Below, piece after piece: positions 1 through 18,670 of a stretch of 64,000 bases of DNA. Below the pieces are notes generated by a model. That model worked only from the letters and a program-made list of their open reading frames with translations, was not told where the DNA came from and did not search any database. Numbering within the stretch: the first letter of the stretch is position 1; the number at the start of each line of letters is the position of its first letter. Location of the stretch: NCBI GenBank assembly GCA_023396915.1, contig JAEWUV010000001.1, positions 21,206 through 85,205 on the forward strand, written 5' to 3'. The DNA is from Candidatus Parcubacteria bacterium. GTDB lineage: Bacteria; Patescibacteriota; Microgenomatia; UBA12405. A program made the translations under genes and the position numbers.

Positions 1-818
1 CTTCCTGCCATACTATAAAATGACACATCAGCTTCTCCGGCTACTGCTTTAGCCAACAAAGTTTTCCCCACTCCGCTTGGGCCGACTAACAACACTCCCT
101 TAGGCGCCCTGGCTCCCATTTTTTGATATTTTTCTGGGTGTTTCAAAAAATCAACCACTTCCATCAAATCATCCTTAGCCTCTTTTACCCCAGCCACATC
201 TTTAAAAGTCACATTTTGTTTACCTTTCACAAACAATTTTGCCGTTGATTTACCAAAACCAAACATTCCACCACCAGCTCCACCGGACTGCTTTCTAAAT
301 AACCACAAAATAAAAAGAATCGGAATTCCTATAGTCAGCAATATACTCAAAACATCCCCCATCATCTTCCAACCTTGTCGATTATTTACTTCCATATTTA
401 CTTTAGTCAAATCAATTCCTTCTCTTTGTAATATTTCTGTCAACGAAATCGTCGGTTCTTTGGAGGTTACCATTATTTTTTTATCATCCTTTAGTTGAGC
501 CACAATCTGATTATCCGAAACCATCAAACTCTCCACCTTGTCTTGTTTAATTGTATTTACCAACTCTGAAATAGAAACCTGATTTACTCCTGCCGATTCC
601 AACAAACCTCCCAAACTAGATAATAACCAAAAAATCAAAATCAAATAAATAAACCACTTAATTATTTGTTTTGGCCCAATTTCAATTTTTTTAATTTTTA
701 CCCCCGGTGGCAAATTTTTCAAAAAATCCTCTTCTAACTTCTTGTTTTTACCTATCTCTCCCTTATTTTTTATATCTTTACCCTCAGTTTTTTTCTTCAA
801 AACATCAAATATTTTCAT
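1..818 (-). CDS. ftsH: ATP-dependent zinc metalloprotease FtsH, N-terminal part (runs off the window at coordinate 1). TM segments plus the AAA Walker A motif.
   Basis: Reverse-strand translation from the ATG (complement of 816-818) gives [27 protein letters not shown]...[32 protein letters not shown], the classic FtsH N-terminus and AAA P-loop. Not in the ORF track because it is truncated by the window edge. Confidence 0.8.
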
Positions 819-861
819 CCTGTCATTATACCATCTCAACCAACGTCTATGAATTAATATT

Positions 862-945
862 TTGACGCAGACAATGTTTTTTGCAGGGCGCAGTCTCTGA
901 GTGGATATTACGATGGTTACAAGCCCGAAAAAAATATTGTCGAGT
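862..945. repeat. R2 repeat copy 1 (gcgcagtctctgagtggatattacgatggttacaagcccgaaaaaa core), about 44 nt upstream of the ftsH start.
   Basis: Near-identical to 7730-7830. The shared core is gggcgcagtctctgagtggatattacgatggttacaagcccgaaaaaa. Confidence 0.7.
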
Positions 946-1104
946 CAAAATAAATTTTCAAAATTCGTAACAAAAATTTAAATAAAATTATCTCCGCATT
1001 TTCTCCTTTTTTACTCCGCATCAATATTTTCAAACAAAACCTTCCTCCGGGTAAACCGGTATCCTCCCTTAAAAAAGGAGGAAGTATTCAAGCAAAAAAA
1101 AAGA

Positions 1105-1157
1105 CTGCTCCCTTTTTTAAGGGGAGCTGTCAAACGAAGTGAGACTGAGAGGTTTTT
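1105..1157. repeat. Composite GC-hairpin element, copy A: ctgctcccttttttaaggggagctgtc...gactgagaggttttt. On the minus strand it reads as a hairpin plus U-run, a possible terminator of the 95-aa gene.
   Basis: Same 5' half as the 7021-7077 copy. On the minus strand it reads gacagCTCCCCttaaaaaaGGGAGcagtcttttttttt. Further CCTCC...GGAGG and ccgggtaaaccgg hairpins lie at 1047-1082. Confidence 0.55.
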
Positions 1158-1164
1158 ACTTCAA

Positions 1165-1452
1165 TTAATACTTACTCAATTCTATCAACAAATCTTTATT
1201 ATCATTTCCTGCCGCTTCTACCCAAAAATGATGATTACAGTTCTCGCAATTATAAAAAATTCTAAATTTTCCATTTCGATATTCACTTCTGATCGGCCTC
1301 ATTAATCCTTTGCACATACTCGCCCTATCTCCTGGTATTTCTTCATCCACATGCTTTCCCCAAAGACACTTCGGACAATGATCAGTTGTCCCATTACCTA
1401 TCACTTTCTCCTCACACACTTCACAAACAAAATCTTCCACCACTTTTTTCAT
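1165..1452 (-). CDS. Small Cys-rich zinc-ribbon protein (RNHCP-like; CxxC x4).
   Basis: 95 aa with the pairs CEVC, CPKC, C...C and CENC. Resembles RNHCP-domain proteins. Confidence 0.45.
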   Translation of the reverse strand: MKKVVEDFVCEVCEEKVIGNGTTDHCPKCLWGKHVDEEIPGDRASMCKGLMRPIRSEYRNGKFRIFYNCENCNHHFWVEAAGNDNKDLLIELSKY

Positions 1453-1545
1453 ACCAAAATTATATCTTAAAATTTAAGTCTAAAACCACATTTTTATTTT
1501 TGACGAAGATATTTATTTTAAAAAATTCCATTTTTCACTTATAAA

Positions 1546-1626
1546 AATTCGAAGCTATAATTTTTCAACGAATTTCAACACGCCAGTATTGACTGAGGTG
1601 AAAAATTGATAGCAAGAATTTTAAGT
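1546..1626. repeat. R1 repeat copy 1 (~85 bp: aattcgaa..taatttttYRacgaatttcaacRcg.cagYattgactgagg..aaaaattc...agaattt).
   Basis: One of five copies of an ~85-bp family. It lies 94-174 nt upstream of the minus-strand 95-aa gene start. Confidence 0.75.
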
Positions 1627-1654
1627 AAAAAAAATAATAAATTTATTTTTAAAA

Positions 1655-4618
1655 TCATTTCCCCAACACCACTCCCATCTTCACATCCTCATCCAGTTTC
1701 AAATTAAACAACACCTTCCCCCCCACAATACTTGCTGTCGGTTCAACTTGTAATGGTTGCCAACTCTCGGGATATGATATCAGACTCACCAAACTCGTTT
1801 CTCCAGTCCCTGGCTGTTTTTGAATATACTTCATATAAGTAAACTCCTTCCCCGCACCAAAATCAAAATTACTATTGTATTTCACTTCTAAAATTCTTTT
1901 CTTCAAAACCGGTACTGTCATCAAAAACCCTACCTCTTTTTTCCCATCAACCTCCTTAATATTTATTTCGCTATTAACATAAACTTTTTTAACTGAAGTA
2001 TCATATCCATCAGCCACACTAATTTGACTTAATTCCACCTCTTTTGGCAAATAAATTCTCACATAATTCTTATAATCTCCTCCTGGCCAATTATCATTTT
2101 TAGCTGTATTTTCATAAGTCACCCGAATTGTTCTGTTTAAACTCGACTGAGTAATTTCGGTTACTTCTTCAATCCCCTTTTGAATAAAATAATTTGCCTT
2201 ATTTACACCTAAATTTGCTTCAACTAAATACCAAAAATCAGGGACACAATTTTCCCGAGCACATTTTCCATTATAAATTTTCCCATCCCATCCCAAATCA
2301 TTAATTTTCTTGGCCAAACCACTATTATTAACCGCTATCTGAATCTCATTTTTTTGAAGCAAGTCCAACATCGAATCAACCAATAACCCCATTTTTTCTA
2401 TATTTAAATTTTTAATTTCCTCAAACATCTGAGCCCCTAGCCCTCCCAAGAAACTCGCCTTTTGCACCGACCCTGGAAAAAATTTAGTCTCAGCATAAAA
2501 CTCTGCCTGTTCATAAAGATTGTCAGCCGATATTTTTTCATCAAAATCAGGTACGTGAACTTCCCCTATTACCCCCAACATCGACTTAGCCACCGCCAAA
2601 TCAATCCCTATAATTCCATCAACCTTCTGTCCTGTTTCTTTTTCCAAAAACCACTGAATGTCAGCCCCTGTCTTCACAAAATCCGCCTTCCAGTTAGCAT
2701 CTCTCATATACCAATTTGCCTCATTTAAATGACTTTTAATTTCCCAAGGAGGTTCTACATGACCCTCCAATTGACCATCTGCTTCATAAACATCTTTAAT
2801 TTTAAACTCTGTCAATTTTCCACCCTTAAAAGTTATCAACCCATAACTACCAATAAACCCTCCTGTCGGCCTCAACTCCGACTCGTTTTGAAATAAAATC
2901 ATATATTTTCTTTCCTTACCGTCTACCCCCAAAAATTCTGGCAATAAATTAACTGTCTCTTTCCCCAAAGTAATCTTCACCCTAGTCTCATCCAAAACTT
3001 TTTCACCTTTCTGCAAAGACGACCTCCAACCAGCCGGCAACCAACTATAATCCCCTGATAATCTCGCTTGTAATAAACCAATATTATTTTCTATGTCCCC
3101 AATTCCTGTTTTTAGTATATCCAATTCCGTTGTCCAGTCTATCTGATTTCCCTTAAAAATAGCATTATTAATTTCTTCTGCCGCTTTAACTGTTGTTGGT
3201 AAACTTTTTTCTAAAATCAAAAAATCCATCAAAACTTTTAACCCACTTTGATAATTTCTCCCTAAAACAAAACTATTTAAACCCAATTCGCTTATTCTAG
3301 TATCAATCTCCTCTAATCCTTTAAGTCTTTTATCTGCCAAAATCTCAACCTGATTATATTTTTTATCCTTTATCAATTCCGGTATTTCTTTAACACTCCT
3401 CATAGCTCTATTTGTCACCCAACCCCATCTCATTGGTTCAAACAACAAAACTATTAAAAAACACACTACTATCACCCACCAATATCTCCACCCTTTCCAC
3501 CTTTTTTGTTTCTTTACCTTTTTCTCATTCTTTGTCTCACCAAAGATTTCAGCGACAGCGGCCTCCTCACTTTCCTCTTCAATATAATCTTTTTCCTTTG
3601 TCTCCTTTGTCTCCTTTTTCCCTATCAACCTTGGTAAATCAAAATCGTCACTTTTTTCCTCATAAACTACCATTTTTGGTTCTACCTTCTCCTTTTCTTC
3701 GATTTTTTCCTTTGTCTCACCAAAACTTTCAACGAAAGTGGGTTTTTCCTCTACCATCTCATTTTCCTCAACTAAAATATCAAATAATTTTTCATGTGTA
3801 TCCTTTTTTATTTTTTCTTCCATTTTTTTATCCTGAGCTTGTCGAAGGACACTTGCTGTTTTTCGTCTATTCTCTTCATCCATTAAAGAAAAAAAATACT
3901 GCAAAGTTCCATCAATTCCTTTATTAAAATCCATTTCTGCTTTCCAACGTAATTGTCTTTCACTTTCATCAGCTAATTTTTCATTCCCTTGATTAATTTC
4001 TTGATTAACTTCCATCACTTTAAATCTCGTCATTTTTGCCTTATCCATCAAAACCTTAGCTAGTTGTTCAAAGGTTATCTCTTTGCCTAAAAGTAAAAAA
4101 TATTCATTAGCCGTCCCCGACAAAAAACAAGCTCTTAAAATAGCTTCCACTAAATCACTTACAGCCAATAATCTAATTGTTTTACCGGCTTCAGGTAGCT
4201 CTAAATTCTTATTTCGCACCGCCTCTTTTATAACCTTAGACAAAAAATTATTTTCACCCATTCTTTCTCCATAAACACCCAAAGCCTCTACAATTCGCCA
4301 ATCTCTATCCAAAGTAGTTGCTTCCCGACTCAAATAACTTTTTCTCGTTTCATTGTCCACTGAAACCAAAACCAGTTTCTCTCCTTTAATTTTCCCCCAA
4401 TCGTTTTTATCGCCATAGAAATCAAAAACATAATCAAATTCCCCCTCAACTTCATCCAAATTCATTGCCCATTCAAAATTTTTTAAATCAGACAATCCAT
4501 TTATCATCTCTCCCACCCCAACCACATGAATATCTTTTTCTACCAATTCTTCCGCCAATTTTTTTGCCACAAAATGATCAATTCCCAAAATTAATGCTGT
4601 TGGAACCCCATGACTCAT
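1655..4618 (-). CDS. Large membrane-anchored protein with an N-terminal Rossmann/epimerase-like domain, an E/K-rich low-complexity linker, one TM segment and a C-terminal DUF4012-like domain.
   Basis: N-terminus ALILGIDHFVAKKLAEELVEKDIHVVGVG is a Rossmann-like motif. TM segment at WVIVVCFLIVLLF. C-terminal region contains LRPTGGFIGSYGLITF, characteristic of DUF4012. Two FGETK(E/N)(K/E)K repeats sit in the linker. Confidence 0.55.
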   Translation of the reverse strand: MSHGVPTALILGIDHFVAKKLAEELVEKDIHVVGVGEMINGLSDLKNFEWAMNLDEVEGEFDYVFDFYGDKNDWGKIKGEKLVLVSVDNETRKSYLSREATTLDRDWRIVEALGVYGERMGENNFLSKVIKEAVRNKNLELPEAGKTIRLLAVSDLVEAILRACFLSGTANEYFLLLGKEITFEQLAKVLMDKAKMTRFKVMEVNQEINQGNEKLADESERQLRWKAEMDFNKGIDGTLQYFFSLMDEENRRKTASVLRQAQDKKMEEKIKKDTHEKLFDILVEENEMVEEKPTFVESFGETKEKIEEKEKVEPKMVVYEEKSDDFDLPRLIGKKETKETKEKDYIEEESEEAAVAEIFGETKNEKKVKKQKRWKGWRYWWVIVVCFLIVLLFEPMRWGWVTNRAMRSVKEIPELIKDKKYNQVEILADKRLKGLEEIDTRISELGLNSFVLGRNYQSGLKVLMDFLILEKSLPTTVKAAEEINNAIFKGNQIDWTTELDILKTGIGDIENNIGLLQARLSGDYSWLPAGWRSSLQKGEKVLDETRVKITLGKETVNLLPEFLGVDGKERKYMILFQNESELRPTGGFIGSYGLITFKGGKLTEFKIKDVYEADGQLEGHVEPPWEIKSHLNEANWYMRDANWKADFVKTGADIQWFLEKETGQKVDGIIGIDLAVAKSMLGVIGEVHVPDFDEKISADNLYEQAEFYAETKFFPGSVQKASFLGGLGAQMFEEIKNLNIEKMGLLVDSMLDLLQKNEIQIAVNNSGLAKKINDLGWDGKIYNGKCARENCVPDFWYLVEANLGVNKANYFIQKGIEEVTEITQSSLNRTIRVTYENTAKNDNWPGGDYKNYVRIYLPKEVELSQISVADGYDTSVKKVYVNSEINIKEVDGKKEVGFLMTVPVLKKRILEVKYNSNFDFGAGKEFTYMKYIQKQPGTGETSLVSLISYPESWQPLQVEPTASIVGGKVLFNLKLDEDVKMGVVLGK

Positions 4619-4942
4619 ATCAATATTTTAACCTGTTTTTACTCCTTACTACCAACCAATAACTAATAACTAAACAATACGGTAATATTTCGGTTTATTT
4701 GCGGTTATTAACTATTAAAAATGTATGAACAGCCATGAGAGGGAAGTATCAGAACGTGAAAAAACGTCATAACGTCAATATGTGTATCTGTATTTACAAA
4801 AAATTAAATTCCAAGCTAAAAATCTCAAAAACAAACAGTCTAATAATCAAAATTTACGTTCGAACCTGATTCCAAAGTTGTCAAAACAAAATCATATTTT
4901 GTACATATTCCAAAGCAAAAACAACATCAATAATTTTATATT

Positions 4943-5030
4943 TAAATTCGAAACTATAATTTTTTGACGAATTTCAACGCGACAGCATTGACTGAGGCAA
5001 AAAATTCGTAGTGAGAATTTAAAAAAACAA
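4943..5030. repeat. R1 repeat copy 2.
   Basis: aaattcgaaactataattttttgacgaatttcaacgcgacagcattgactgaggcaaaaaattcgtagtgagaattt. Followed by the shared tail aaaaaaacaaaattgttatcaggccaaaaaat. Confidence 0.75.
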
Positions 5031-5066
5031 AATTGTTATCAGGCCAAAAAATAAAATTATCCAAAC

Positions 5067-6284
5067 CTACTTTCTCTTTACCAACATCCCTGTCATCAAC
5101 ACTACCGCTATCAATTCTGTCAAAACCGTTATCCAAGCCGCTCCATTAATTCCAAAAGAGGGGATTAATAATAAGTTCCCCCCAATATTTACCACCAAAG
5201 AAACTAGACCTACCAACAAAACCTGTTTTTGTTTTCCTAAAGCAATCAAAGTAAAACCCACTAAATGCCCCAAATAAGCAAATATCATCGCTACCAACAA
5301 AATTCTCAAAACCAATACTGATTTTTCAAATCCATTTCCAGACAATACCCCAATAATCCACGGCGCCAAAAAATAAACCACCCCAGACACCACTATTGCT
5401 CCTAGAAACATCAAAACCCCGGTTTGCCAAAAAAGTCTCTTTCTGTCGTTTTGCTTATTCGACAGCATTGGAAATACACTGTTAATCAAATAATATGCTG
5501 GCTGAACCAAGTTCCCATAAATTTTGTACGCCAAACCATAAAAAGCCAAATCTCTTACCCCGATCAACTGTTTAATCAAAATCGAATCTACCGCCCTGTC
5601 GTAACCAGAAAACAAAATCATATACACCCCCATCGGCCACGACTGTTTCAAAAAATTTACCCAAAAAGTTTTATTAGGTCTAACTAGTTTTAACCTACCC
5701 AAAAGTTTACCTGTTAAACCCAAACCAACCCCCAAGCTAATAATCCGGGCTATCAAATAAACCCCAAAAACTCCAATTAAATTAACTTGGGCTTGCCAAC
5801 CGAATAACCAAACCACAAATATTAATGGGAATAAAATATCTATCCATACTTTTAACTCCATTCTCATTTCTGTTTGAAAAATTATTTCCAAACTTCCAGC
5901 CACAGCCGTAAACCCAACCATCAACAAACCCATTAACGCCTCTATTTCTATCCCATCAAAACCACTCCACAGTAAAATTACTCCCAATCCTACCAAAAAC
6001 ATTAGTAGGGAAGCAAACAACCTAAACCAAGCCACCTGAATATAAATTTCTTTTCTTTTTTCTTCGCTTTCTTTTGCTGCCTCCCTAACCCCCATCACTT
6101 TAGTTCCAAAATCAGCTGCCGAATCCAACAGTAGCCACATTGAACCAATCAACATATAATTTCCATAAACTTCCACCCCCAATTTTCTGGTCAAAATCGC
6201 TGTTGTTACCAAACTCAAACCCACAGTAATACATTTCCCCAACACTTGTACCAAGGTGTTCCAAATCGGTTTCTTCATCAACAT
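5067..6284 (-). CDS. Polysaccharide biosynthesis protein / oligosaccharide flippase (Wzx-like, MOP superfamily).
   Basis: Polytopic membrane protein. N-terminus LGKCITVGLSLVTTAILTRKLGVEVYGNYMLIGSMWLLLDSAADFG is typical of Wzx/PST-family flippases. Confidence 0.6.
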   Translation of the reverse strand: MLMKKPIWNTLVQVLGKCITVGLSLVTTAILTRKLGVEVYGNYMLIGSMWLLLDSAADFGTKVMGVREAAKESEEKRKEIYIQVAWFRLFASLLMFLVGLGVILLWSGFDGIEIEALMGLLMVGFTAVAGSLEIIFQTEMRMELKVWIDILFPLIFVVWLFGWQAQVNLIGVFGVYLIARIISLGVGLGLTGKLLGRLKLVRPNKTFWVNFLKQSWPMGVYMILFSGYDRAVDSILIKQLIGVRDLAFYGLAYKIYGNLVQPAYYLINSVFPMLSNKQNDRKRLFWQTGVLMFLGAIVVSGVVYFLAPWIIGVLSGNGFEKSVLVLRILLVAMIFAYLGHLVGFTLIALGKQKQVLLVGLVSLVVNIGGNLLLIPSFGINGAAWITVLTELIAVVLMTGMLVKRK

Positions 6285-6312
6285 AAATCTATTTTATCCT
6301 AAAATTTTTATT

Positions 6313-6400
6313 TAAATTCGAAATCGTAATTTTTTAACGAATTTCAACACGCCAGTATTGACTGAGGTAAAAAATTCATGATGAGAATTTAAAAAAATAT
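6313..6400. repeat. R1 repeat copy 3, 29-116 nt upstream of the flippase start.
   Basis: aaattcgaaatcgtaattttttaacgaatttcaacacgccagtattgactgaggtaaaaaattcatgatgagaattt, then tail aaaaaaatattaccaagccgaaaaat. Confidence 0.75.
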
Positions 6401-6418
6401 TACCAAGCCGAAAAATTT

Positions 6419-7690
6419 TTAAACCAGTGCTAATACCAAAGACAACAGCCACATGTTCTGGGGTAGGGTAAACCAATAATGATCTACCATCCCACTCATA
6501 AAAATTACCCCCAATACCACCCAACTCCATTTACCCAAGTCTCCCCATTTAATCTTTTTAGCCAATAACAAAATTGTTCCCATTAATCCCAAAATTCCTA
6601 CCTCTGACACCAAAAGCAAAAATATATTATGTACCGGTTGTAACCAAAAAGTATGGTTATTTTTTAAAACATTAGGCAAATTAGCCAAATAATTTCCCAG
6701 CCCTACTCCTACCCAAGGTGATTGTCGAATCATTTCTATTGCCGCTAAATTTAATTGACCTCTTTTGATCATTCCATTCTCATCCCACCCACCAAAAAAA
6801 TTACCCAAAGGATAATTAAAATCAACCAATTTTAATAAAAACAAAATTAAAATTAATCCCAATACTACAAATTTAATTTTATTTCTGATTTTCCAATCAT
6901 TTTGCCAAAACCAAAAACACATTACTCCCAAAGTTAAAAACCAAATTGTTCTACTTCCAGTCAAAAATATTCCCATCAATCCCAACCAAAATACCCCCCA
7001 CCATTTAATTTTTTCTAAGACTGCTCCCTTTTTTAAGGGGAGCTGTCCCGATTTATCGGGACTGAGAGGTTTGTTCCTTATCCACCACACCAACCCCACT
7101 AACAAAAAACCAGCCAAACTATTCGGGTGAGAAAAAGTTCCATAAGCCCTTACTAAACCTGTATTAACCACTGACATTTGAGCAATTCCTATTGTATTAA
7201 AATCAAATCTTCTTTCACCCAAAAACCACCACAAACCATTCAAACTTCCACCTTTAGATATTTGTCCCAATGCTAAAAGTGACTCAAGTATTATCCAATA
7301 GGGAATAACTTTAATCATAATATCTCCAACAATTCTCTTATTTTTTACTACCCAAAACCAAAAATAACCCAATTCCACCACTCTCAACCACTTATAAACC
7401 GCCACCCATTTATTAATCGACACTAAAATATTTATCCCCACAAAAACTAATCCCAATAAACACCAAAAACTAACCTCCCATTTCCTCTTCTTACTTTCTG
7501 CCAACAAATTAGTTATTAACCAAAGTACAAAGACTAAATCTACTAAATAAAAAGTCGGTGAAAAATAATCAATCCTTATTCCCAACACTGTCGACCAATC
7601 AAACCAAAAATGTTTTCCCAATTGTGTTGGAATTAACAAAATCAACCAAAACAACAAAATTTTTGTCACCTTACCCCAAAATCCTTTCAC
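6419..7690 (-). CDS. O-antigen ligase/polymerase-like (Wzy_C family) membrane protein carrying an in-frame hairpin-repeat insertion.
   Basis: C-terminal motif PVHNIFLLLVSEVGILGLMG (H-N...E.G..G) is typical of the O-antigen ligase family. Polytopic. Residues RNKPLSPDKSGQLPLKKGAV are encoded by repeat copy B at 7021-7077. Confidence 0.6.
   Translation of the reverse strand: MKGFWGKVTKILLFWLILLIPTQLGKHFWFDWSTVLGIRIDYFSPTFYLVDLVFVLWLITNLLAESKKRKWEVSFWCLLGLVFVGINILVSINKWVAVYKWLRVVELGYFWFWVVKNKRIVGDIMIKVIPYWIILESLLALGQISKGGSLNGLWWFLGERRFDFNTIGIAQMSVVNTGLVRAYGTFSHPNSLAGFLLVGLVWWIRNKPLSPDKSGQLPLKKGAVLEKIKWWGVFWLGLMGIFLTGSRTIWFLTLGVMCFWFWQNDWKIRNKIKFVVLGLILILFLLKLVDFNYPLGNFFGGWDENGMIKRGQLNLAAIEMIRQSPWVGVGLGNYLANLPNVLKNNHTFWLQPVHNIFLLLVSEVGILGLMGTILLLAKKIKWGDLGKWSWVVLGVIFMSGMVDHYWFTLPQNMWLLSLVLALV
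7021..7077. repeat. Composite GC-hairpin element, copy B (ctgctcccttttttaaggggagctGTCCCGATttaTCGGGACtgagaggtttgttcc), in frame inside the ligase-like CDS.
   Basis: First 27 nt are identical to copy A at 1105. The second hairpin CCCGAT-tta-ATCGGG is shared with the copies at 25641 and 19314. Confidence 0.7.
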
Positions 7691-7729
7691 AACCCAATCT
7701 TACCACAAAGCCAAAAGTTTAATTGTAAT

Positions 7730-7830
7730 TTTGGCGCAGATAATATTTTTGAAGGGCGCAGTCTCTGAGTGGATATTACGATGGTTACAAGCCCGAAAAA
7801 ATTGTTATCAAGCCAAAAAATTACAATAAA
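7730..7830. repeat. R2 repeat copy 2 plus the shared tail, about 40 nt upstream of the ligase-like gene start.
   Basis: ttttggcgcagataatatttttgaagggcgcagtctctgagtggatattacgatggttacaagcccgaaaaaattgttatcaagccaaaaaat. Confidence 0.7.
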
Positions 7831-7842
7831 AATATTATGTAC

Positions 7843-8313
7843 TTAAGCCTTTGGCTTAATCACCACATGCCTTTGTTCACCTTCGCCTTCCGACTCACTT
7901 ACCACCCCTTCCATTTCCGAAATCACCATATGACAAATCCGTCTTTCATAAGAACTCATATTAGCCAAAGCCACATCTTTATTGCTTACCAAACATTTCT
8001 CAGCCAGACCTCTCACCATATTTGTCAATCTTTCTTTTTGTTCATTTCGATAGTTATTAATATCAAGAAGAACTCTGACTTCTTCACCGACTTGATTCCG
8101 CACTATCAAAGCCAAAATTAACTGCACTGCCGCCAAGTTTCTTCCTCTAAAACCAATTAATCCTGCCGGATTAGCTACTGTAATTCCCACTAATACTTGA
8201 TTTTCTTCACCCTCAACGTCTTCCACAAAGGCTTTTTCCACTTCAAAATTGATCTGTGCCAAAAAATCACAAGTAAGTTGTAAGATTTTTTCATTTCTTT
8301 TTTTATTATCCAT
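7843..8313 (-). CDS. jag: Jag/KhpB-like RNA-binding protein (KH + R3H).
   Basis: R3H-like C-terminus (LTNMVRGLAEKCLVSNKDVALANMSSYERRICHMVI). Sits in the conserved yidC-jag position next to the origin. Confidence 0.7.
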   Translation of the reverse strand: MDNKKRNEKILQLTCDFLAQINFEVEKAFVEDVEGEENQVLVGITVANPAGLIGFRGRNLAAVQLILALIVRNQVGEEVRVLLDINNYRNEQKERLTNMVRGLAEKCLVSNKDVALANMSSYERRICHMVISEMEGVVSESEGEGEQRHVVIKPKA

Positions 8314-8354
8314 AGCCGCTATTTTAGCATAAAAATTTCCCGATAAAATAATAA

Positions 8355-8440
8355 ATTTAAATTTAGAAGTTATAATTTTTCAGCGAATTTCAACGCAAAG
8401 CATTGACTTAAGATGAAAAATTCGTAACAAGAAATTTAAA
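8355..8440. repeat. R1 repeat copy 4 (the most diverged), upstream of jag.
   Basis: aaatttagaagttataatttttcagcgaatttcaacgcaaagcattgacttaagatgaaaaattcgtaacaagaaattt. Confidence 0.65.
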
Positions 8441-8445
8441 TAGAA

Positions 8446-9228
8446 TTATTTTTTACTAAGTCTATTTACCAAAACCTGTTGGCCGACGGTTAATAGAGAC
8501 GTAGTAAACCAATACAACAACAAACCCAAAGCAAAATTCCAGCCAATAAAAATTGTCATCAATGGCATCATATAAAGTGATTGGGTTCTCATCGCCGCCA
8601 TCATATCATCACCTTTTTCCTTTGTAGTATCGGCAATATTTTCACTTACTTTAGGGCTAGGCATCATAATTTTTGCTGCTAAAAACTGTAAGGCTCCTGA
8701 ACCTAATAATAAAACTACTGCCATTATCAAATTCATTCCCATACCCTGAGCAAAAGCCTTTGATGGAGTCAAAGATAAATCACTCCCCAAAAAATTTAAA
8801 TTAAAATTAAAACCTTCCTCAATTCTAAAAGAGGGGATTAATTGGGCATTGATATCCGCCACACTACTTTTTTGTCCAGCTCTCGAAAAACCACTTACCA
8901 TATTAAAAGCCGAAAAGAAAAGCAATAGCACTACTATTTGTAAAATCTGTGGCAAACACCCCGACATTGGATTAACCCCTTCTTGTTTATATAAACTCAT
9001 CTGAGCCTGAGCCAAAGCTTGTTTATTAGTTCCATATTTCTCTTTTAATTTATTCAATTTAGGTTGTAATTCTCTTATTTTTCCGGCCGATTTTAAACTT
9101 GGCCAAATCAATGGAAAGAGTATTACTCTCAATAAAACTGTTACTGCTACAATCGACCAACCAAAATTCCCAAACCAATAATAAAAAGCAAACAATGCAT
9201 TAACAAATGGCGCTATTAATAAATTCAT
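8446..9228 (-). CDS. yidC: Membrane protein insertase YidC (short form).
   Basis: Motifs of the YidC/Oxa1 family (LLRVILFPL..., GCLPQILQIVVL) and the conserved origin-region gene order. Confidence 0.9.
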   Translation of the reverse strand: MNLLIAPFVNALFAFYYWFGNFGWSIVAVTVLLRVILFPLIWPSLKSAGKIRELQPKLNKLKEKYGTNKQALAQAQMSLYKQEGVNPMSGCLPQILQIVVLLLFFSAFNMVSGFSRAGQKSSVADINAQLIPSFRIEEGFNFNLNFLGSDLSLTPSKAFAQGMGMNLIMAVVLLLGSGALQFLAAKIMMPSPKVSENIADTTKEKGDDMMAAMRTQSLYMMPLMTIFIGWNFALGLLLYWFTTSLLTVGQQVLVNRLSKK

Positions 9229-9237
9229 AAGTAATAG

Positions 9238-9441
9238 TCATTTTAACAAATCAATTCCTTTTCCACCACCCGGCCTACACCTCAAAACCCGATTTAATCC
9301 CAACCATAAACCTTTTACAACTCCATATTTTTCTACCGCCTGATAGGTATATTCCGAACAAGAGGGGATAAATCTACATTGTTCACCCCTAGAAATATAT
9401 TTTTTATACCAAACCAACAACTTTAAAACTATTTTTTTCAT
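9238..9441 (-). CDS. yidD: Membrane protein insertion efficiency factor YidD.
   Basis: CRFIPSCSEY motif. 67 aa. Confidence 0.9.
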   Translation of the reverse strand: MKKIVLKLLVWYKKYISRGEQCRFIPSCSEYTYQAVEKYGVVKGLWLGLNRVLRCRPGGGKGIDLLK

Positions 9442-9773
9442 TAAAGCTTTGGGATTAACCTGTCCACCTCTTTTTCTAAATCAACCACACTTGCCTCTAA
9501 AGCTGCTTTTTTAACCAAAAACAATACCCTCAACCCACTCTGAAACTTATCCAACTTTTTACTTAAAACTACCATTAGTCTTCTCTTAATCTTATTTCTA
9601 TCAACCGCTCTTTTAGAAATCTTTTTAGAAATAATTACCCCAAATTTAAGTAATTTATCCTCTTTATCTTCCGTTACCACTCCAAAAAAAGGGGACGACA
9701 ACACCATTTTCCCTTTTTCTTTTAAATCCCCAAACTCCTTCCTTTTAGAAATCCTGTTTATCTTTTTCAGCAC
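9441..9773 (-). CDS. rnpA: RNase P protein component.
   Basis: Basic 110-aa protein immediately downstream of rpmH. Its stop overlaps the yidD start (ATGA). Confidence 0.8.
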   Translation of the reverse strand: MLKKINRISKRKEFGDLKEKGKMVLSSPFFGVVTEDKEDKLLKFGVIISKKISKRAVDRNKIKRRLMVVLSKKLDKFQSGLRVLFLVKKAALEASVVDLEKEVDRLIPKL

Positions 9774-9787
9774 AAGATAATTATACC

Positions 9788-9925
9788 TTAGGCACTAATC
9801 TTTTTTCGTCCCTTAGCCCTTCGTCTTTTCAAAACATTTCTGCCAGTAGCGCTTTTCATTCGCTTCAAAAATCCGTGAACCCGTGAATGTCTTTTACTTT
9901 TTGGTTGATATGTTCTTTTTGTCAT
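9788..9925 (-). CDS. rpmH: 50S ribosomal protein L34. Not in the ORF track because it is under 60 aa.
   Basis: Translation [45 protein letters not shown] is near-universal L34. Confidence 0.92.
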
Positions 9926-9954
9926 AAGTCGTATTTTAACATATAAAAAGTTAA

Positions 9955-10040
9955 TTATTATAAATTCGAAATCGTAATTTTTTGACGAATTTCAACACGC
10001 CAGTATTGACTGAGGCAAAAAATTCATGATAAGAATTTAT
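9955..10040. repeat. R1 repeat copy 5, 30-115 nt upstream of the rpmH start (minus strand).
   Basis: aaattcgaaatcgtaattttttgacgaatttcaacacgccagtattgactgaggcaaaaaattcatgataagaattt. Confidence 0.75.
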
Positions 10041-10051
10041 AAGTTTGCTTC

Positions 10052-10170
10052 AAATTATCCTCTTTCATTTTGTGGAAAACTCATTTATTATGATGTGGAT
10101 AACTCAAAAACAACTCCTCCGGTTGTTTGCAGTCCCGCTACTGCGGGATTATCCTTCCCCACACCACTGC
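10052..10170. promoter_or_regulatory. rpmH-dnaA intergenic region: DnaA boxes (TGTGGATAA at 10094-10102, TGTGGAAAA at 10071-10079, plus weaker ttatcctct/ttatccttc) and a palindromic hairpin TCCCGCtactGCGGGA (10133-10148).
   Basis: Direct read of 9-mers matching TTATCCACA or its reverse complement. The dnaA promoter and autoregulation region. Confidence 0.6.
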
Positions 10171-11833: not shown

Positions 11834-12949
11834 ATGAATCTCTCTCTTCTCCAGGAGAACCTCAACCTTGCCCTGACCAACGTTTCCCGTTTTGTTTCTT
11901 CTAAAAATCAACTACCAGTATTAAATAATATTTTATTGTCTACCAATCAGGGTCGTCTCAAGTTATCTGCCACTAATTTAGAACTAAGTATTAATTATTG
12001 GATTGGTGCCAAAATAGAAGAAGAGGGGAGTATCACTATCCCCTCAAAAGAAATCACCGAATTTGTTTCTTATCTACCAACAGGAAAAATTGACTTAGAA
12101 CTCAAAAACAACCTTTTAACTCTTTCTTCTGAAAAAACCAATTCCGAATTCACCACTACTCCAGCTACAGATTTCCCCGAGTTTCCTAAAATAAATCCTG
12201 AAACCATATTCGAAATTGATTTTGATCTTTTTACTCAAAGCATTAATCAAATTTCTTTTTCCGCTGCTCTTGATGACACTCGGCCTATTTTAACTGGTGT
12301 TTTATGTATTTTTGAAAAAAAATCTGTCAAATTTATTGCCACTGACGGTTTCCGTCTTTCTTTAAAAGAAATCAAATTAGAAATACCACTTGATATTAAA
12401 AAAGAATCTTTGAGTTTTTTGATTCCCGCTAAATCCTTAATAGAAGTCACTAAACTGGCTAAAAACGATTCAAAAATTAAAATAGGTCTTACATCTGATG
12501 AACACCAAGTAATATTCATTCTAGACGATATAGAACTAGTTTCTCGACTTATAGAGGGTGAGTTTCCGGATTATAAAAAATTAATTCCTGAAAACTACTC
12601 TACCAAAGTCTTTATAAATAAAGATGAATTATTCCAATCAGTTAAACTTGCCTCTGTTTTTGCCAGAGAGTCAGCTAATGTAGTTAAAATCAATATTAAA
12701 AATAATAATTTAGAATTAACCGCTAACGCCCCTCAGGTTGGCCAAAATTTAATTAAAATAGACTCAAAAACTGAAGGAGAGAACTTAGAAGTTGCTTTTA
12801 ATTATAAATTCCTAATCGATTTTCTTAATGTTTGCAAAAGTAATGAGATTCTAATTGAATTAAATGAGAGTCTCAGTCCTGTTTTTTTTCACGACCAATC
12901 CGACCCTTCCTTTACTCATATAATAATGCCAGTTCGTTTACAAGACTAA
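11834..12949 (+). CDS. dnaN: DNA polymerase III beta sliding clamp.
   Basis: MNLSLLQENLNLALTNVSRFVSS... beta-clamp N-terminus, about 370 aa, downstream of dnaA. Confidence 0.9.
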   Translation: MNLSLLQENLNLALTNVSRFVSSKNQLPVLNNILLSTNQGRLKLSATNLELSINYWIGAKIEEEGSITIPSKEITEFVSYLPTGKIDLELKNNLLTLSSEKTNSEFTTTPATDFPEFPKINPETIFEIDFDLFTQSINQISFSAALDDTRPILTGVLCIFEKKSVKFIATDGFRLSLKEIKLEIPLDIKKESLSFLIPAKSLIEVTKLAKNDSKIKIGLTSDEHQVIFILDDIELVSRLIEGEFPDYKKLIPENYSTKVFINKDELFQSVKLASVFARESANVVKINIKNNNLELTANAPQVGQNLIKIDSKTEGENLEVAFNYKFLIDFLNVCKSNEILIELNESLSPVFFHDQSDPSFTHIIMPVRLQD

Positions 12950-14688
12950 TTACTTGTCTCCACTGCATTTTCATCCCAGAATTGTGCTCCCTGAAAATAA
13001 CCTGGCCCAAAAACTTGTTGATTAGCAAGGAATAAGGACCCTGCTATAATTGCAATCAAAATTCCAGCCGACACTGCTACTGCCGCTTTTACTTTAAACC
13101 CTCCAATAGAAGAAAGTGCTCCCCCTAAACCATTAACTCCCTTCAAAAATCCACCTCCAAGCCTCGTAATTCCATTTCCCAACCCTTTTCTAATCCCTGG
13201 CCCTAATCTACTCCCTAAGTCTCCCAAAGATTTTTTCAAAAAACCACCTGTTGTTGCCGACAAGTTCTTTAATCCATTTGAAATATTTCCCATTAATCCC
13301 AATCTCATACCCCCTCCATTTGCCATACCAGCATAAACCCTCCCCATCGCATCACCAAGACTGTTCCCAGTAAACATTTTTATCGACCTTTCTATATTTT
13401 GATTTTGTTGGCTCCCAATTTTTCTTTGTCCGCCCATAAACCGGTACATATTTACTTTTGTTTCCCCAAAGAGAGCCCTTTTTCTTTGAATTCGCTCCAG
13501 TGCTCCTTTGACTTTCTCATCTTTTCTTAAAACCGCATTTACTCTGTCAAAAGCATCTAAATTAGAATCAGCTGGAATTTTTAAACCACCCAATACTACA
13601 TCTGCTTTTTCCGACTTTTCCAATATATCTCTTGTTTCTTTAGGAGATATATTTACATATCCCGCCGTTACATTAAAATTATCAACGGCAATTTTAGCTT
13701 TACCGGAAGGGTCTTTACTTAATATTGAATTTTCTTGATTTTTAATTTCATTGTCTAAATTAAGCACTTGACTAGATAATTTCTTTTTTACCCTTACAGC
13801 TTGTTTTTGCTCTTCGGTTATTTTCCCTCCATTTTCTTTTTTAACTTTTTCTACAAACCTTTCAGTCAAATAATTATCGACTGCCTCACGATGCTCAGAT
13901 GCCCATTTTTCTAACTCTAATGTTATCGCTTTAATTTTTACCTTATATTCCAATTGAGATATTTCTCCTTTAGCCACAGCTCTGGTTAAATCATTTATTT
14001 TTTCTTCATTACTCTTAATTTCTGACCCATCTATAATTCTTTCCATTTCAGTTTCAATTCTGCTTATTGTTTCCTTATCTACCTCACTCTTCCCGGATTC
14101 TTGAGCCAATTTTCTGCTTAAATCTTGAATTTTCCCCTTCACTAATTTCACATCTTCTTTAACTTTTTTATCAACAACTTCTTCCCTTACTACTGTCCCA
14201 TCTTCAGCCTTACTTTTATCTTCTGGTTTTTCCTCTATAACAACCCCTTCCTCCGCTTTAATTTTTTCACTTTTAAGTTTAGTTTGAGTCTCAATAAATC
14301 TTCTTATATTTTCATCAGCTAAACTTGGTTTTTTATCTAAAATATCTTGAATTTCTTTTAAAACAGCCTCACTACTATTATCATTTTTGGCTTGTTTTTC
14401 ATCAAACTCTTTTAATAATTCATCTAGTTTTTGCTTACTAATTTGCTCATCACCAATCTTTTTTTCCGCATCTGCTTTTCTTTCTAGACTATTGATTGCT
14501 TCGTCAACTTTGTCAGATATAACCCCTTTAACTAATTCATCGAGAGATTTTTTAAACTCACCATTTGGGTCTAACTCTCCTCCTAATTCTTTTAACTGTC
14601 GCAAATAAATTAAACCATCATCAAAAGAAATTACTTTTATACTATTCAAAAAAACAATTTGTCCTTCTCTGTCATTTGGTAACGCCAT
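12946..14688 (-). CDS. Hypothetical 580-aa protein: long coiled-coil N-terminal two-thirds, a Gly-rich (GxxG repeat) region and a C-terminal TM helix. Last gene of the VirB4 operon.
   Basis: E/K-rich heptad-like sequence, then GGGMRLGLMGNISNGLKN...GLGNGITRLGGGFLKGVNGLGGALSSIGG, then AAVAVSAGILIAIIAGSLFL. No recognisable catalytic motif. Confidence 0.4.
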   Translation of the reverse strand: MALPNDREGQIVFLNSIKVISFDDGLIYLRQLKELGGELDPNGEFKKSLDELVKGVISDKVDEAINSLERKADAEKKIGDEQISKQKLDELLKEFDEKQAKNDNSSEAVLKEIQDILDKKPSLADENIRRFIETQTKLKSEKIKAEEGVVIEEKPEDKSKAEDGTVVREEVVDKKVKEDVKLVKGKIQDLSRKLAQESGKSEVDKETISRIETEMERIIDGSEIKSNEEKINDLTRAVAKGEISQLEYKVKIKAITLELEKWASEHREAVDNYLTERFVEKVKKENGGKITEEQKQAVRVKKKLSSQVLNLDNEIKNQENSILSKDPSGKAKIAVDNFNVTAGYVNISPKETRDILEKSEKADVVLGGLKIPADSNLDAFDRVNAVLRKDEKVKGALERIQRKRALFGETKVNMYRFMGGQRKIGSQQNQNIERSIKMFTGNSLGDAMGRVYAGMANGGGMRLGLMGNISNGLKNLSATTGGFLKKSLGDLGSRLGPGIRKGLGNGITRLGGGFLKGVNGLGGALSSIGGFKVKAAVAVSAGILIAIIAGSLFLANQQVFGPGYFQGAQFWDENAVETSN

Positions 14689-14721
14689 TTACTAAATTAT
14701 AGCAACTAATTACTACGCAAA

Positions 14722-17007
14722 TTAAATTATTCCACTATCTAGTAAATCGTCAGGAGTAGGTTCGTTGCTGTTTGTTTTATTCTCAAACAAAGGCGTCGGT
14801 TTTTTTGCTAATTGTGGCGGTTGGGGAATATTGGTCTCTTCTGTTTTTACAAAAATCGGTTTTTGTTTTTGTTCTGGTTCTAGTACCTCCATTTTAGGTG
14901 GTACAAATCTGTCTTGTTTTTCTTGACTATCCAATCTAATCTCTCCTGATAAATTAGGCTTTTTAACCTCAGCTTTTTCTAACTCATCAATCTTTTTTTG
15001 AAGTATATCTTCTACTTCATTTTTTTGAACCTCTTTACTTTCCTCTGAACTTTCACTTTTTGGAGTTTCAGTCAGAGGCTGATTAACCACTGGCTGAGGA
15101 GCTGGAATTTCAGCTTTTGGTTGAGGAACTGGAGTCTCAGTCTTTGGCTGAGGAGTTGGAGTTTTTTCAAGTGTTTCCAATTTTCTTTTTCTCAAAACCT
15201 CTTCCGGGTCAGAAGTAATTAATTGATGTTCTTCCTCTGAAGCAATAACTTCTACTGCTACATGGTTCTGTCCAGCAAAAAAGAGACCTTGGCCTTTATC
15301 AGCGGTTAATAATAATTGTTTTTCTCCTTCACTTAAATAAAATACCTCACCCACCTGATCAATTGCCGCCGCGTGTTGTTTAAGTAAAATCTGAATCGAA
15401 CTATTAGTTACAATTTCTTTTCCGTAAGTACTCTTTAAAAAATCATTAACATCCTGAGTAATTGTAGTCACACCCAAATAATATTTTCTACCTCTTTTAA
15501 CTACCCCTCTTAAAAACTGAGCCGAATCTTCGTATTGCATCATATACCAAGCTTCATCTACCACTAAAATCCTTTTCTTTAATGTCTTTTTAACTATGGT
15601 CCAAATATAGTCCAAAATAATATGCATCGCTACTGGCCTCAAAGTTTCTTCTAGATTTTTTATCCCAAACACCACAAATTGATTGGTTAAATTAACTGTA
15701 GTTTTTTGATTAAAAATACCCGCAAACGACCCTTTAATATATTTTTCCATCCTAGCAGCTATCATTTGGGCTTTTTCTTCCTCTCTTCCTATTAAAGCTT
15801 TATAAACATCCTCAATCAAAGGTGGCTCTTTATTTTGGGTTTCTGGGTCTGGGGTTATCCCTTTTGCTTTATAAGCATCCATCAAAGCCTTATCTAAAAT
15901 AGACTCTTCCATTGGATCTAATGCCCCCAACATTACCTTCATTAATTTATGGACCGAAAGAGTTTTACTGTTCAAAGCATTCTCTCCTTCCTCTTCTACC
16001 AAAGACAAATCCATTGGGTTTATTTTCGACTCTTCATTGTAGCCAAAAGCAATATATTGCCCTCCGGCCGCATCGGCCAAGTCCTTATATTCGTTTTCAG
16101 GATCTATTACAATTACTTCTGTTCCAAACATCAAAGATCGCAATACTTCCAACTTAATCATATAAGACTTTCCTACGCCTGAGGTAGCAAAAACCACTGA
16201 GTTGTAGTTCGGCATGGAAAATCGGTCAAAAATTATTAACGATCCATTATGGGCATTAATCCCATACATTACTCCCTTATCGTCAGACAAATCAGAAGAT
16301 ACAAATGGAAAAGTTGTTGCCAACGAAGTGGTGTCCATATTTCTGGTTATTCCCAATCTGTCACTATTAGCCGGTAAACAAGTTATAAAACCATCTTCCA
16401 TCTGCAAAGTTGCTCTTTTACTCACTACCAACAAAGACCCTAATGCCGCCTCTAAATTTTTATTAATCCTATCCAAATCCTCTTTAGAATCTGCTGAAAT
16501 ATTTATATAAAGCCCAAACTGAAAAAACCTTTCTTCTCCTTTTACTAAATCTGCTTGTAAATTCAAAGCGTCTTCAAGCTTTGCTTGTGTTGCCGGATTT
16601 ACCAATCGACCACGTTGGATATCAGTACTTAATTCCGCCTCCATTTCTGTAATTTTGCGTCGTAAATCATCTAAAATCGCCTTGCCATCAGTTGGATAAA
16701 TATACATCGAGATATTCAGTGTCCAATCAAAATTAATCAAAGAAGACAGCCAATTCATCCCGACAAACCTTGGATAACCGGATACAAATAAGGTTCGAAA
16801 ATATTTATCACCAATTCTGACATGGTTAAAATCAACTTCCAAAGATGATGGGGCAATTATATCTTTAATCGAAACTAATCCATCGGAAAAATCTCTTTTT
16901 TTAGTATTATCAACAACTCCAGATTCCTCTGTTTTTTCCTTAGAATTACCCTTGTTTTCCACAGCCACAGTTTTTGGTTTTCTAATTATATTTTTCAATA
17001 AATCCAT
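14722..17007 (-). CDS. virB4: VirB4/TrsE/PrgJ-family type IV secretion ATPase (C-terminal 761-aa portion) with a P/Q/K/E-rich disordered tail.
   Basis: IAPSSLEVDFNHVRIGDKYFRTLFVSGYPRFVGMNWL is the CagE_TrbE_VirB N-region. Walker A is FATSGVGKS and Walker B is ILVVDEAWYMM. The tail has PTPQPKTETPVPQPKAEIPAPQP repeats. Confidence 0.85.
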   Translation of the reverse strand: MDLLKNIIRKPKTVAVENKGNSKEKTEESGVVDNTKKRDFSDGLVSIKDIIAPSSLEVDFNHVRIGDKYFRTLFVSGYPRFVGMNWLSSLINFDWTLNISMYIYPTDGKAILDDLRRKITEMEAELSTDIQRGRLVNPATQAKLEDALNLQADLVKGEERFFQFGLYINISADSKEDLDRINKNLEAALGSLLVVSKRATLQMEDGFITCLPANSDRLGITRNMDTTSLATTFPFVSSDLSDDKGVMYGINAHNGSLIIFDRFSMPNYNSVVFATSGVGKSYMIKLEVLRSLMFGTEVIVIDPENEYKDLADAAGGQYIAFGYNEESKINPMDLSLVEEEGENALNSKTLSVHKLMKVMLGALDPMEESILDKALMDAYKAKGITPDPETQNKEPPLIEDVYKALIGREEEKAQMIAARMEKYIKGSFAGIFNQKTTVNLTNQFVVFGIKNLEETLRPVAMHIILDYIWTIVKKTLKKRILVVDEAWYMMQYEDSAQFLRGVVKRGRKYYLGVTTITQDVNDFLKSTYGKEIVTNSSIQILLKQHAAAIDQVGEVFYLSEGEKQLLLTADKGQGLFFAGQNHVAVEVIASEEEHQLITSDPEEVLRKRKLETLEKTPTPQPKTETPVPQPKAEIPAPQPVVNQPLTETPKSESSEESKEVQKNEVEDILQKKIDELEKAEVKKPNLSGEIRLDSQEKQDRFVPPKMEVLEPEQKQKPIFVKTEETNIPQPPQLAKKPTPLFENKTNSNEPTPDDLLDSGII

Positions 17008-17009
17008 AG

Positions 17010-17708: not shown

Positions 17709-17722
17709 ATATTAATAATAAA

Positions 17723-18661: not shown

Positions 18662-18670
18662 TACTAAATT

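Follow-up and report, generated by a model that had tools for sequence, protein, structure and literature searches.

What is the nature of a short repeat that occurs twice in the spacers of a conserved gene array beside dnaA, each time close to the start of a gene, in a member of the Patescibacteria? The repeat, called R2, lies in a stretch of 64,000 nucleotides from Candidatus Parcubacteria bacterium (assembly GCA_023396915.1, contig JAEWUV010000001.1, positions 21,206 to 85,205; hereafter the window), and a preliminary description made from the sequence had proposed that R2, together with an A-rich tail shared with copies of another repeat, R1, forms modular composite upstream elements. The genomes of Patescibacteria are very small and tightly packed, and mobile DNA is usually said to be scarce in them. 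The reading favoured here, with moderate confidence, is that R2 represents a new family of non-autonomous palindromic mobile elements of about 92 nt, comparable to the Rickettsia palindromic elements (RPE) and to miniature inverted-repeat transposable elements (MITE). The R2 superfamily, of which R1 would be a sister subfamily, had not been catalogued before and is found in Shapirobacteria-like Patescibacteria, a lineage not known to carry such elements. The in-frame, apparently translated copies inside genes make RPE the closest analogue, and the occurrence of copies both between genes and in-frame in essential genes makes selfish mobile DNA the most likely explanation, rather than a module of promoter control.

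A repeat search over the window aligns 878-950 with 7746-7818 at 92% identity, and a 42-nt core (GGGCGCAGTCTCTGAGTGGATATTACGATGGTTACAAGCCCG) is present in two exact copies (886-927 and 7754-7795), where shuffled sequences are expected to contain none. The two copies, originally placed at 862-945 and 7730-7830, are indeed present, with somewhat different extents according to the covariance model introduced below (859-951 and 7728-7819; Table 1); both stop 37-40 nt short of minus-strand starts (the ATG of ftsH at 818 and the GTG, at 7690, of the Wzy-like gene previously called "ligase-like"), in agreement with the distance of about 40 nt first reported. It had been overlooked that the "prefix" (TTTTGRCGCAGAYAAT...) and the "tail" (...ATTGTYRTCRAGYCAAAA) flanking the core are reverse complements of each other, so that each R2 is one imperfect hairpin of about 92 nt, of which prefix and tail are the two arms and the 42-nt core the apex. 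The hairpin folds better than shuffles (z from -2.6 to -6.5), and the differences between the arms of the two copies are compensatory (GAC/GTC versus GGC/GCC; ACAAT/ATTGT versus ATAAT/GTTAT).

A 24-mer of the R2 core has no match among the GTDB species representatives, a collection outside which the species of the window falls. The right-arm motif AAAAAYATTRTCTKCGYCAAA is found at 55 loci in GTDB genomes and at 55 in JGI metagenomes, most of them single chance matches within coding DNA of unrelated phyla; when the left arm is also required, 23 distinct full elements are left, all on AT-rich Patescibacteria-like contigs. A covariance model built from these motif-found members gives, at a cut-off of E<5e-5, 41 matches (40 distinct) in about 20 Shapirobacteria-like Patescibacteria assemblies, and many of its members are without the exact search motif. 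Pairing is kept in 96.6% of the paired cells of the model alignment, against 84.7% in shuffles; 74 cells are changed on both sides, against 16.7 expected and no more than 20 in slid controls, and covariation extends to each of the 11 pairs in the two arm helices. The alignment was fitted to the covariance model, and the covariation is independent of that fitting, since the arms of divergent members are visibly unrelated yet complementary, as in the pairs TATTGCCAGAT/ATCTGGCAATA and GTGATGAAT/ATTCATCAC. The consensus hairpin consists of an outer helix (UUUUGRC/GYCAAAA), a second helix (GAYAA/UURUC), an invariant U5/A5 helix, and an inner part with a short G+C helix and an apical loop of about 20 nt containing a conserved UCG...CUCAG. 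The apex, UUUUU-NN-GUGCUCGCA(U)CCUUCG-[9-12 nt]-CUCAGCGGCUUGCGCGC-NN-AAAAA, is recognisable in all members; arm sequences are well conserved among close members, and in divergent ones the same apex is combined with different arms, so that what is conserved is the shape of the hairpin and the apical sequence, not the sequence of the arms. Within a genome the cores are identical while the arms differ (the window and L017), and between genomes the cores differ.

Size, structure and covariation of this kind resemble those of a small RNA, and R2 could in principle be an independent family of small-RNA genes with their own promoter and terminator; the core is G-rich on the strand opposite to the genes, and 21 of the 23 individual sequences have a better fold antisense. 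This advantage, attributed to the G-richness, vanishes in the consensus analysis, where the energies computed on one alignment (-37.8 versus -39.7) and the G-U:A-C counts (47:15 versus 41:16) of the two strands are taken as equal; moreover, neither flank has a conserved -10 box or U-tract at fixed positions, some copies lie within open reading frames (ORFs), and no Rfam family is matched, all of which makes a family of small-RNA genes very improbable. The choice of a functional strand by folding was dropped on the same grounds. Rfam 15 gives no match at gathering thresholds over the whole window, and the elements themselves have none at E<=5. A hammerhead-like CUGA...GAAA on the antisense strand was also considered and discarded, the core positions being a misfit and Rfam finding nothing. 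Extension of the stem into the non-conserved flanks is marginal (-2.6 kcal/mol with the own flank versus -1.8 with those of other members, p=0.017) and was not retained. The IMG/VR search returned no family member on viral contigs, and carriage by phages was rejected.

The genomic position of the members is best described with reference to the array of the window, which is part of a 906,714-bp scaffold (ENA ERZ28596294) and whose Jag homologues are labelled Shapirobacteria and Woesebacteria. From 1 to 9800 every gene is on the minus strand, the order of transcription being rpmH, rnpA, yidD, yidC, jag, the Wzy_C "ligase-like" gene, a flippase-like gene, DUF4012, RNHCP and ftsH; dnaA and dnaN diverge from this array at 10214, with DnaA boxes at about 10050-10110, and the gene order is kept in relatives whose Jag is 92 to 74% identical. 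In most cases no more than about 25 nt separate the stop codon of the same-strand upstream gene from the element, which lies about 20 to 400 nt from the next start; every spacer from yidC to ftsH is occupied by members in one genome or another, other locations being frr->rseP, the comEC junctions and the region upstream of ruvC, and two members lie between convergent genes (L051, L099). Occupancy varies among L006, L017, L022, L058, L069 and L094. The jag->Wzy spacer, filled in L017 and L092, measures 48 nt and has no element in the closest relative, L005 (Jag 92% identical), whose yidC->jag spacer is likewise empty, with no R1 before jag. L006 carries an R1-type hairpin at the site of a window R2, and its RNHCP->ftsH spacer contains R2 arms surrounding a different core; the arm subtype GACTCGRCAATAT is found in the RNHCP->ftsH spacer of the window and L022, and in the yidC->jag spacer of L017 and L094.

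These observations bear directly on the upstream-element interpretation, according to which R2 would be a promoter-upstream module, namely a transcription-factor site for ftsH and the ligase-like gene, with the tail as common operator. The conservation of the arms among close members would fit such a site, as would the position of both window copies, just upstream of -10/-35-like boxes; the widely varying distance to the next start, the copies between convergent genes and those in-frame within ORFs do not, and the compensatory replacement of the arms in divergent members favours a structure over a duplex recognition sequence. Furthermore, L005 keeps the same genes and the same -10 boxes without the element, and the flanks have no conserved promoter or terminator signal. 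Promoter-associated regulation of the two genes is thus the explanation to which we would give the least credit. Reading the arms themselves as promoters (TTGACT/GATAAT) had also been considered and was rejected: the two boxes are wrongly spaced, GATAAT is changed to GATAAC or GACAAT together with compensating changes of the opposite arm, and a promoter scan gives no more sites than shuffles. An intrinsic terminator was likewise rejected: on either strand a U-run precedes the hairpin and an A-run follows it, and the terminator scan makes no call, canonical terminators being present separately in the same spacer as the element.

Three cases of copies inside genes, none of them located in the window itself, are all in-frame and stop-free. 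In L030/L056 the copy adds 93 nt, or 31 residues, in-frame to a full-length LeuRS of 865 aa, corresponding to a gap in the LeuRS of T. thermophilus (PDB 1h3n), and in the LeuRS P0144 the same site is filled by the other apex type; L064 has one copy antisense within MurB, in-frame and adding about 30 residues with respect to 3tx1, and the copy of L016 is antisense and in-frame within a radical-SAM gene. Judging from the reading frames, the intragenic copies are translated as loops of about 30 residues in essential genes. Stop codons are depleted in the family as a whole: a stop-free sense frame is present in 35 of 39 members (27.1+-2.6 in dinucleotide shuffles) and a stop-free antisense frame in 31 of 39 (19.6+-3.0), although the significance of both figures is overstated, the members being related.

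The same copies are an obstacle to the proposal that R2 is a structured cis-acting RNA, at the 3' end or in the intercistronic part of the upstream mRNA, whose spread would be secondary; the ~28-bp hairpin and the conserved loop at its apex would then serve as an RNase III-type processing site, a stabiliser or a protein-binding element. Such a role would account for the short distance from the preceding stop codon, for the co-orientation of 37 of 39 members with the local genes and for the strong covariation and the conserved apex, and it has precedents in the hairpins of Correia and ERIC elements, known targets of RNase III and RNase E (PMC10969869). Copies in LeuRS, MurB and radical-SAM genes, however, would cleave or destabilise essential mRNAs, and the transcripts of the latter two would bear the complement of the apex; the same spacers are without the element in L005, neither the consensus energy nor the G-U versus A-C counts favour the sense strand, and no Rfam family is matched. 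As a primary function this is unlikely; as a secondary effect it is compatible with a mobile element.

The preliminary description was right about the tail shared by R2 and by R1 copies 2 and 3. Its degenerate motif has five sites in the window, against 1.46 expected, and the three best ones (two mismatches at most), namely both R2 copies and 5032-5049 beside R1 copy 2, all adjoin R1 or R2, so that the similarity is not a matter of low-complexity A/T bias; the same arm is also conserved in about 40 elements of other genomes. The site beside copy 2 (5028-5048 in Table 1) has a single mismatch to the tail motif, the version beside copy 3 (6392-6412) is weaker, and R1 copy 1 too has an arm (1499-1519), which had escaped notice. 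R1, about 85 nt long, also folds into a hairpin, and its copies differ from one another by compensatory changes; the five in the window are the best, though weak, non-R2 matches to the R2 model (26 to 13.8 bits, filters off), and all lie on the same strand. R1 shares with R2 the U6/A6 helix and the conserved unpaired linkers, has a shorter apex, and shows a compensatory swap of the outer helix (AAAUUC/GAAUUU in place of UUUGGC/GCCAAA); on these sequence grounds, R1 is probably a sister subfamily of R2. The solo arms adjoining R1 copies 1, 2 and 3, the two tails included, are nested or adjacent partial R2-type elements, and the same arrangement, an R1-like piece followed by a solo arm, recurs in L076. 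Separable arms and cores, solo arms and the case of L076 bear out the modular, composite character first ascribed to these repeats; it is the function as an upstream regulatory element that is not supported.

Taken together, two R2-type and five R1-type copies lie within the 10 kb of the window beside dnaA, and no superfamily copy is present in its other, tightly packed 54 kb. A second, 22-kb sample of the same scaffold (L124), 80-100 kb from the origin, contains two R1-type copies and no R2, which indicates that the superfamily is dispersed, though enriched where long spacers exist. The distribution might also be explained if R2 were a functional site of the origin region, on single-stranded or duplex DNA, for instance a signal for priming, unwinding or organisation: the enrichment in the array beside dnaA (14 of the 23 motif-found members), the uniform strand orientation (37 of 39), the seven superfamily copies in 10 kb by the DnaA boxes, and the fact that an element abuts the DnaA-box cluster both in the window (R1 copy 5) and in L010 would all follow. 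Members far from the array (frr->rseP, comEC junctions, ruvC, leuS, murB), the R1-type copies 80-100 kb away in the same genome and the two empty array spacers of L005 speak against such a site, and the DnaA-box-like TATCCAC of the apex, at first considered a DnaA box, is missing from one whole apex class and was rejected as such; we regard an origin site as improbable. The element adjoining the DnaA-box cluster (TTATCCACA, TTTTCCACA) lies between oriC and the rpmH promoter (9950-10110 in the window; in L010, where it is an R2-like copy, 1090-1222).

The pointers to mobility are the different spacers occupied in different genomes, the absence from a close relative, the nesting and the in-frame intragenic copies. 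As for the mechanism, R2 would spread, or would have spread in the past, by a hairpin-dependent, strand-specific process acting on single-stranded DNA, similar to that of REPIN/RAYT or of palindromes derived from IS200/IS605; short-tract gene conversion between copies would then homogenise the cores within a genome, which is how the identical cores are explained here, and propagation or repair dependent on the hairpin would maintain its pairing. The window copies would be passengers of the jag->Wzy and RNHCP->ftsH spacers and, if transcribed with the upstream gene, would provide its 3' end with a hairpin of about 28 bp.

Several observations weigh against the view of R2 as a mobile element. 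No transposase or other mobilising enzyme was identified in the fragments of 8-22 kb available per genome, where RAYT/Y1 enzymes were not searched for, and no target-site duplication is seen at the three intragenic copies or at the window copies; its detection through the empty site of L005 or the LeuRS homologues was abandoned, these sequences being too diverged for exact junctions. The copy number is low: two R2-type copies, or nine when those of R1 type are counted as well, in the roughly 88 kb sampled from the genome of the window (64 kb of the window itself, some 2 kb further in L001 and the 22 kb of L124), where a MITE would be expected in tens or more copies per genome, and one to three exact-arm matches in each of the other metagenome-assembled genomes (MAGs). 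A conserved apex with covarying arms fits a plain MITE poorly, and its conservation, with that of the hairpin, over about 20 assemblies would fit a selected function too, as would the RNHCP->ftsH spacer being filled in nearly all relatives examined. The concentration of 14 of the 23 motif-found members in the yidC-jag-Wzy-flippase-DUF4012-RNHCP-ftsH array and the presence of 37 of 39 members on the local majority coding strand (observations which are not independent) belong to the same side of the balance, and identical cores with differing arms can also be explained by co-evolution with a trans-acting factor.

Room for a functional role is left by the conserved apex, the low copy number, the strand bias and the enrichment near the origin. 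It is conceivable, if not likely, that R2 is a domesticated, strand-specific hairpin signal, whose apical loop of about 20 nt would be read by a trans-acting factor co-evolving with it in each genome, so that the cores would be identical within genomes and different between them; concentrated beside oriC, the signal could act on the lagging-strand template during replication or, alternatively, as an RNA signal separating the leaderless transcription units of the array.

If R2 is a family of mobile palindromes, its relationship to the known ones has to be considered. With the RPE it shares the short palindromic repeats in a host-dependent lineage with reduced genomes, the location both in intergenic regions and in-frame inside unrelated housekeeping ORFs, where stop-free copies give extra peptide segments, and the lack of an associated transposase (PMC10969869), none having been identified in the fragments for R2. 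It differs from them in length (about 92 nt versus about 100-150 bp), in its much lower copy number, and in its host phylum, Patescibacteria, which is unrelated, so that no sequence homology is expected, as well as in the conserved apical region of about 45 nt with covarying arms, the strong strand bias and the enrichment in an origin-proximal array. ERIC and Correia elements are likewise imperfect palindromes, about 100 nt long and found mainly in transcribed spacers close to the ends of genes, and the copy number is low in some hosts, ERIC having about 30 copies in E. coli (PMC10969869); size variants, nested or composite copies and a hairpin that would form in transcripts are further common traits. 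However, Correia elements duplicate TA, and R2 has no visible target-site duplication; it also has no recognised internal promoter or IHF site, and its arms, although inverted repeats as in these MITEs, are not constant across members and covary. REPIN/RAYT and IS200/IS605 systems resemble R2 in the two inverted arms around a spacer, the selection on hairpin integrity and, as far as the window and intragenic copies show, the lack of target-site duplication, and the strand-specific orientation of R2 is what a mechanism based on single-stranded DNA would predict; in REPINs, usually present in tens to hundreds per genome, the arms (REP) are conserved and the spacer variable, whereas the reverse is true of R2. 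Finally, integron attC sites are imperfect palindromes which, like R2, follow directly on the stop of the preceding gene in one orientation and keep their structure better than their sequence; R2, however, lies among syntenic housekeeping genes and not cassettes, its apex is conserved in sequence and some of its copies are inside ORFs. An attC assignment was rejected also for the absence of RYYYAAC...GTTRRRY, the ends being TTTTGRC...GYCAAAA, and for the context, a conserved housekeeping array.

Searches of the literature for leaderless genes, palindromic repeats or RPE in Patescibacteria gave nothing relevant; in the literature searched, no paper links RPE and Patescibacteria, and R2 would be the first RPE-like system found outside Rickettsiales. 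If this is true, palindromic elements persist throughout a lineage in its few long spacers, nest in one another and add loops of about 30 residues to LeuRS and MurB, which would help to explain the variation in protein length of the clade (LeuRS of 788-975 aa), the spurious ORFs and split genes in MAG annotation, and the oversized spacers of the origin-proximal array. Clean covariation and a conserved apex also make R2 a tractable case for asking whether palindromes are kept by selection on structure or by hairpin-templated repair.

Table 1. R2 and R1 copies, their arms and cores, and solo arms in the window (5' and 3' in gene sense).
Feature	Coordinates	Strand	Evidence or remark
R2 copy 1, complete palindrome of ~93 nt, RNHCP->ftsH spacer	859..951	-	covariance model 94.5 bits, E=3e-17
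R2 copy 1, long-hairpin fold	859..951	-	z -3.9 sense, -6.5 antisense
R2 copy 1, 5' arm ("tail"), AAAAAAATATTGTCGAGTCAAAAT on + strand	928..951	-	pairs with 859-882; helices 1-3 of family consensus
R2 copy 1, apical core, 42 nt	886..927	-	identical in both window copies; homologous cores in 40 family members
R2 copy 1, 3' arm ("prefix")	859..882	-	inverted repeat of 928-951; right-arm motif AAAAAYATTRTCTKCGYCAAA
R2 copy 2, complete 92-nt element, jag->Wzy spacer	7728..7819	-	covariance model 104.3 bits; hairpin fold
R2 copy 2, 5' arm ("tail")	7796..7819	-	
R2 copy 2, apical core	7754..7795	-	
R2 copy 2, 3' arm ("prefix")	7728..7750	-	
R1 copy 1, probable sister-subfamily hairpin	1543..1623	-	26 bits to R2 model; fold z -5.0
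R1 copy 2	4942..5022	-	23.6 bits to R2 model; hairpin fold
R1 copy 3	6312..6392	-	19.9 bits to R2 model
R1 copy 4	8358..8438	-	13.8 bits to R2 model; hairpin fold z -5.6
R1 copy 5, adjoins DnaA-box cluster, upstream of rpmH	9960..10040	-	19.7 bits to R2 model
Solo R2-type 3' arm ("prefix"-type), downstream of R1 copy 1	1499..1519	-	3 mismatches to right-arm motif
Solo R2-type 5' arm, directly upstream (gene sense) of R1 copy 2	5028..5048	-	2 mismatches to left-arm consensus
Degenerate solo R2-type 5' arm, upstream of R1 copy 3	6392..6412	-	3 mismatches to left-arm consensus

Other repeats were encountered in the same regions. The double-hairpin terminator sequence that follows RNHCP (1095-1145) recurs in-frame in the Wzy-like gene (minus-strand ORF 6419-7690) at 7010-7065, with a 31-mer, AAGACTGCTCCCTTTTTTAAGGGGAGCTGTC, identical at 1101-1131 and 7017-7047; relative to L005, the insert amounts to about 13 extra codons (PLSPDKSGQLPLKKGAVL). 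Here a second small palindrome, unrelated to the first, behaves like RPE, and its in-frame presence in the Wzy gene of the window indicates that small palindromes do move in this genome. The LeuRS homologues P0121-P0240 range from 788 to about 975 aa in the clade and contain lineage-specific in-frame inserts at several sites (e.g. ...CHGLRPRNDV..., ...ILDIRSQKE... and N/Q-rich runs), which suggests that several repeat families may be translated inside essential proteins. L009 (Jag 74% identical) has a different repeat of about 150 nt, composed of several G+C-rich hairpins (17370-17520 and 19940-20090), upstream of ftsH and of a 749-aa gene, at positions which in the window hold R-type elements. 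The domains of ComEC are separate ORFs in L030 (621-3193), where the junctions are filled by R2-family elements, and in L124 (6548-8953); the suggestion that the element had split comEC in L030 was withdrawn, as the genome of the window has its comEC pieces, Competence and MBL, 4 nt apart with no element between them.

Almost every gene start, in the manner typical of leaderless mRNAs, lacks a Shine-Dalgarno sequence and has, 5-7 nt before its ATG or GTG, a TAnAAT box that often follows a TG (818, 1452, 6284, 7690, which is the GTG of the Wzy-like gene, 8313 and about 9925 in the window; also in L005, L006, L009 and L022). The GC skew of the + strand is extreme over the minus-strand array (-0.35 to -0.53 over 1-10000) and still negative (-0.03 to -0.33) over the remaining window, + strand dnaA and dnaN included, so that it does not change sign at the putative origin. 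Just past dnaN, at 12946-19285 on the minus strand, Pfam matches (P-loop, DUF87, AAA_10) point to a TraC-like/TraG-like cluster. Lastly, the MAGs L015, L017, L030, L040, L047, L052, L056, L058 and L064, GTDB representatives, are titled "uncultured Gammaproteobacteria", yet they have the Shapirobacteria-like array and proteins nearly identical to those of the window; the label given by the depositor is probably wrong.

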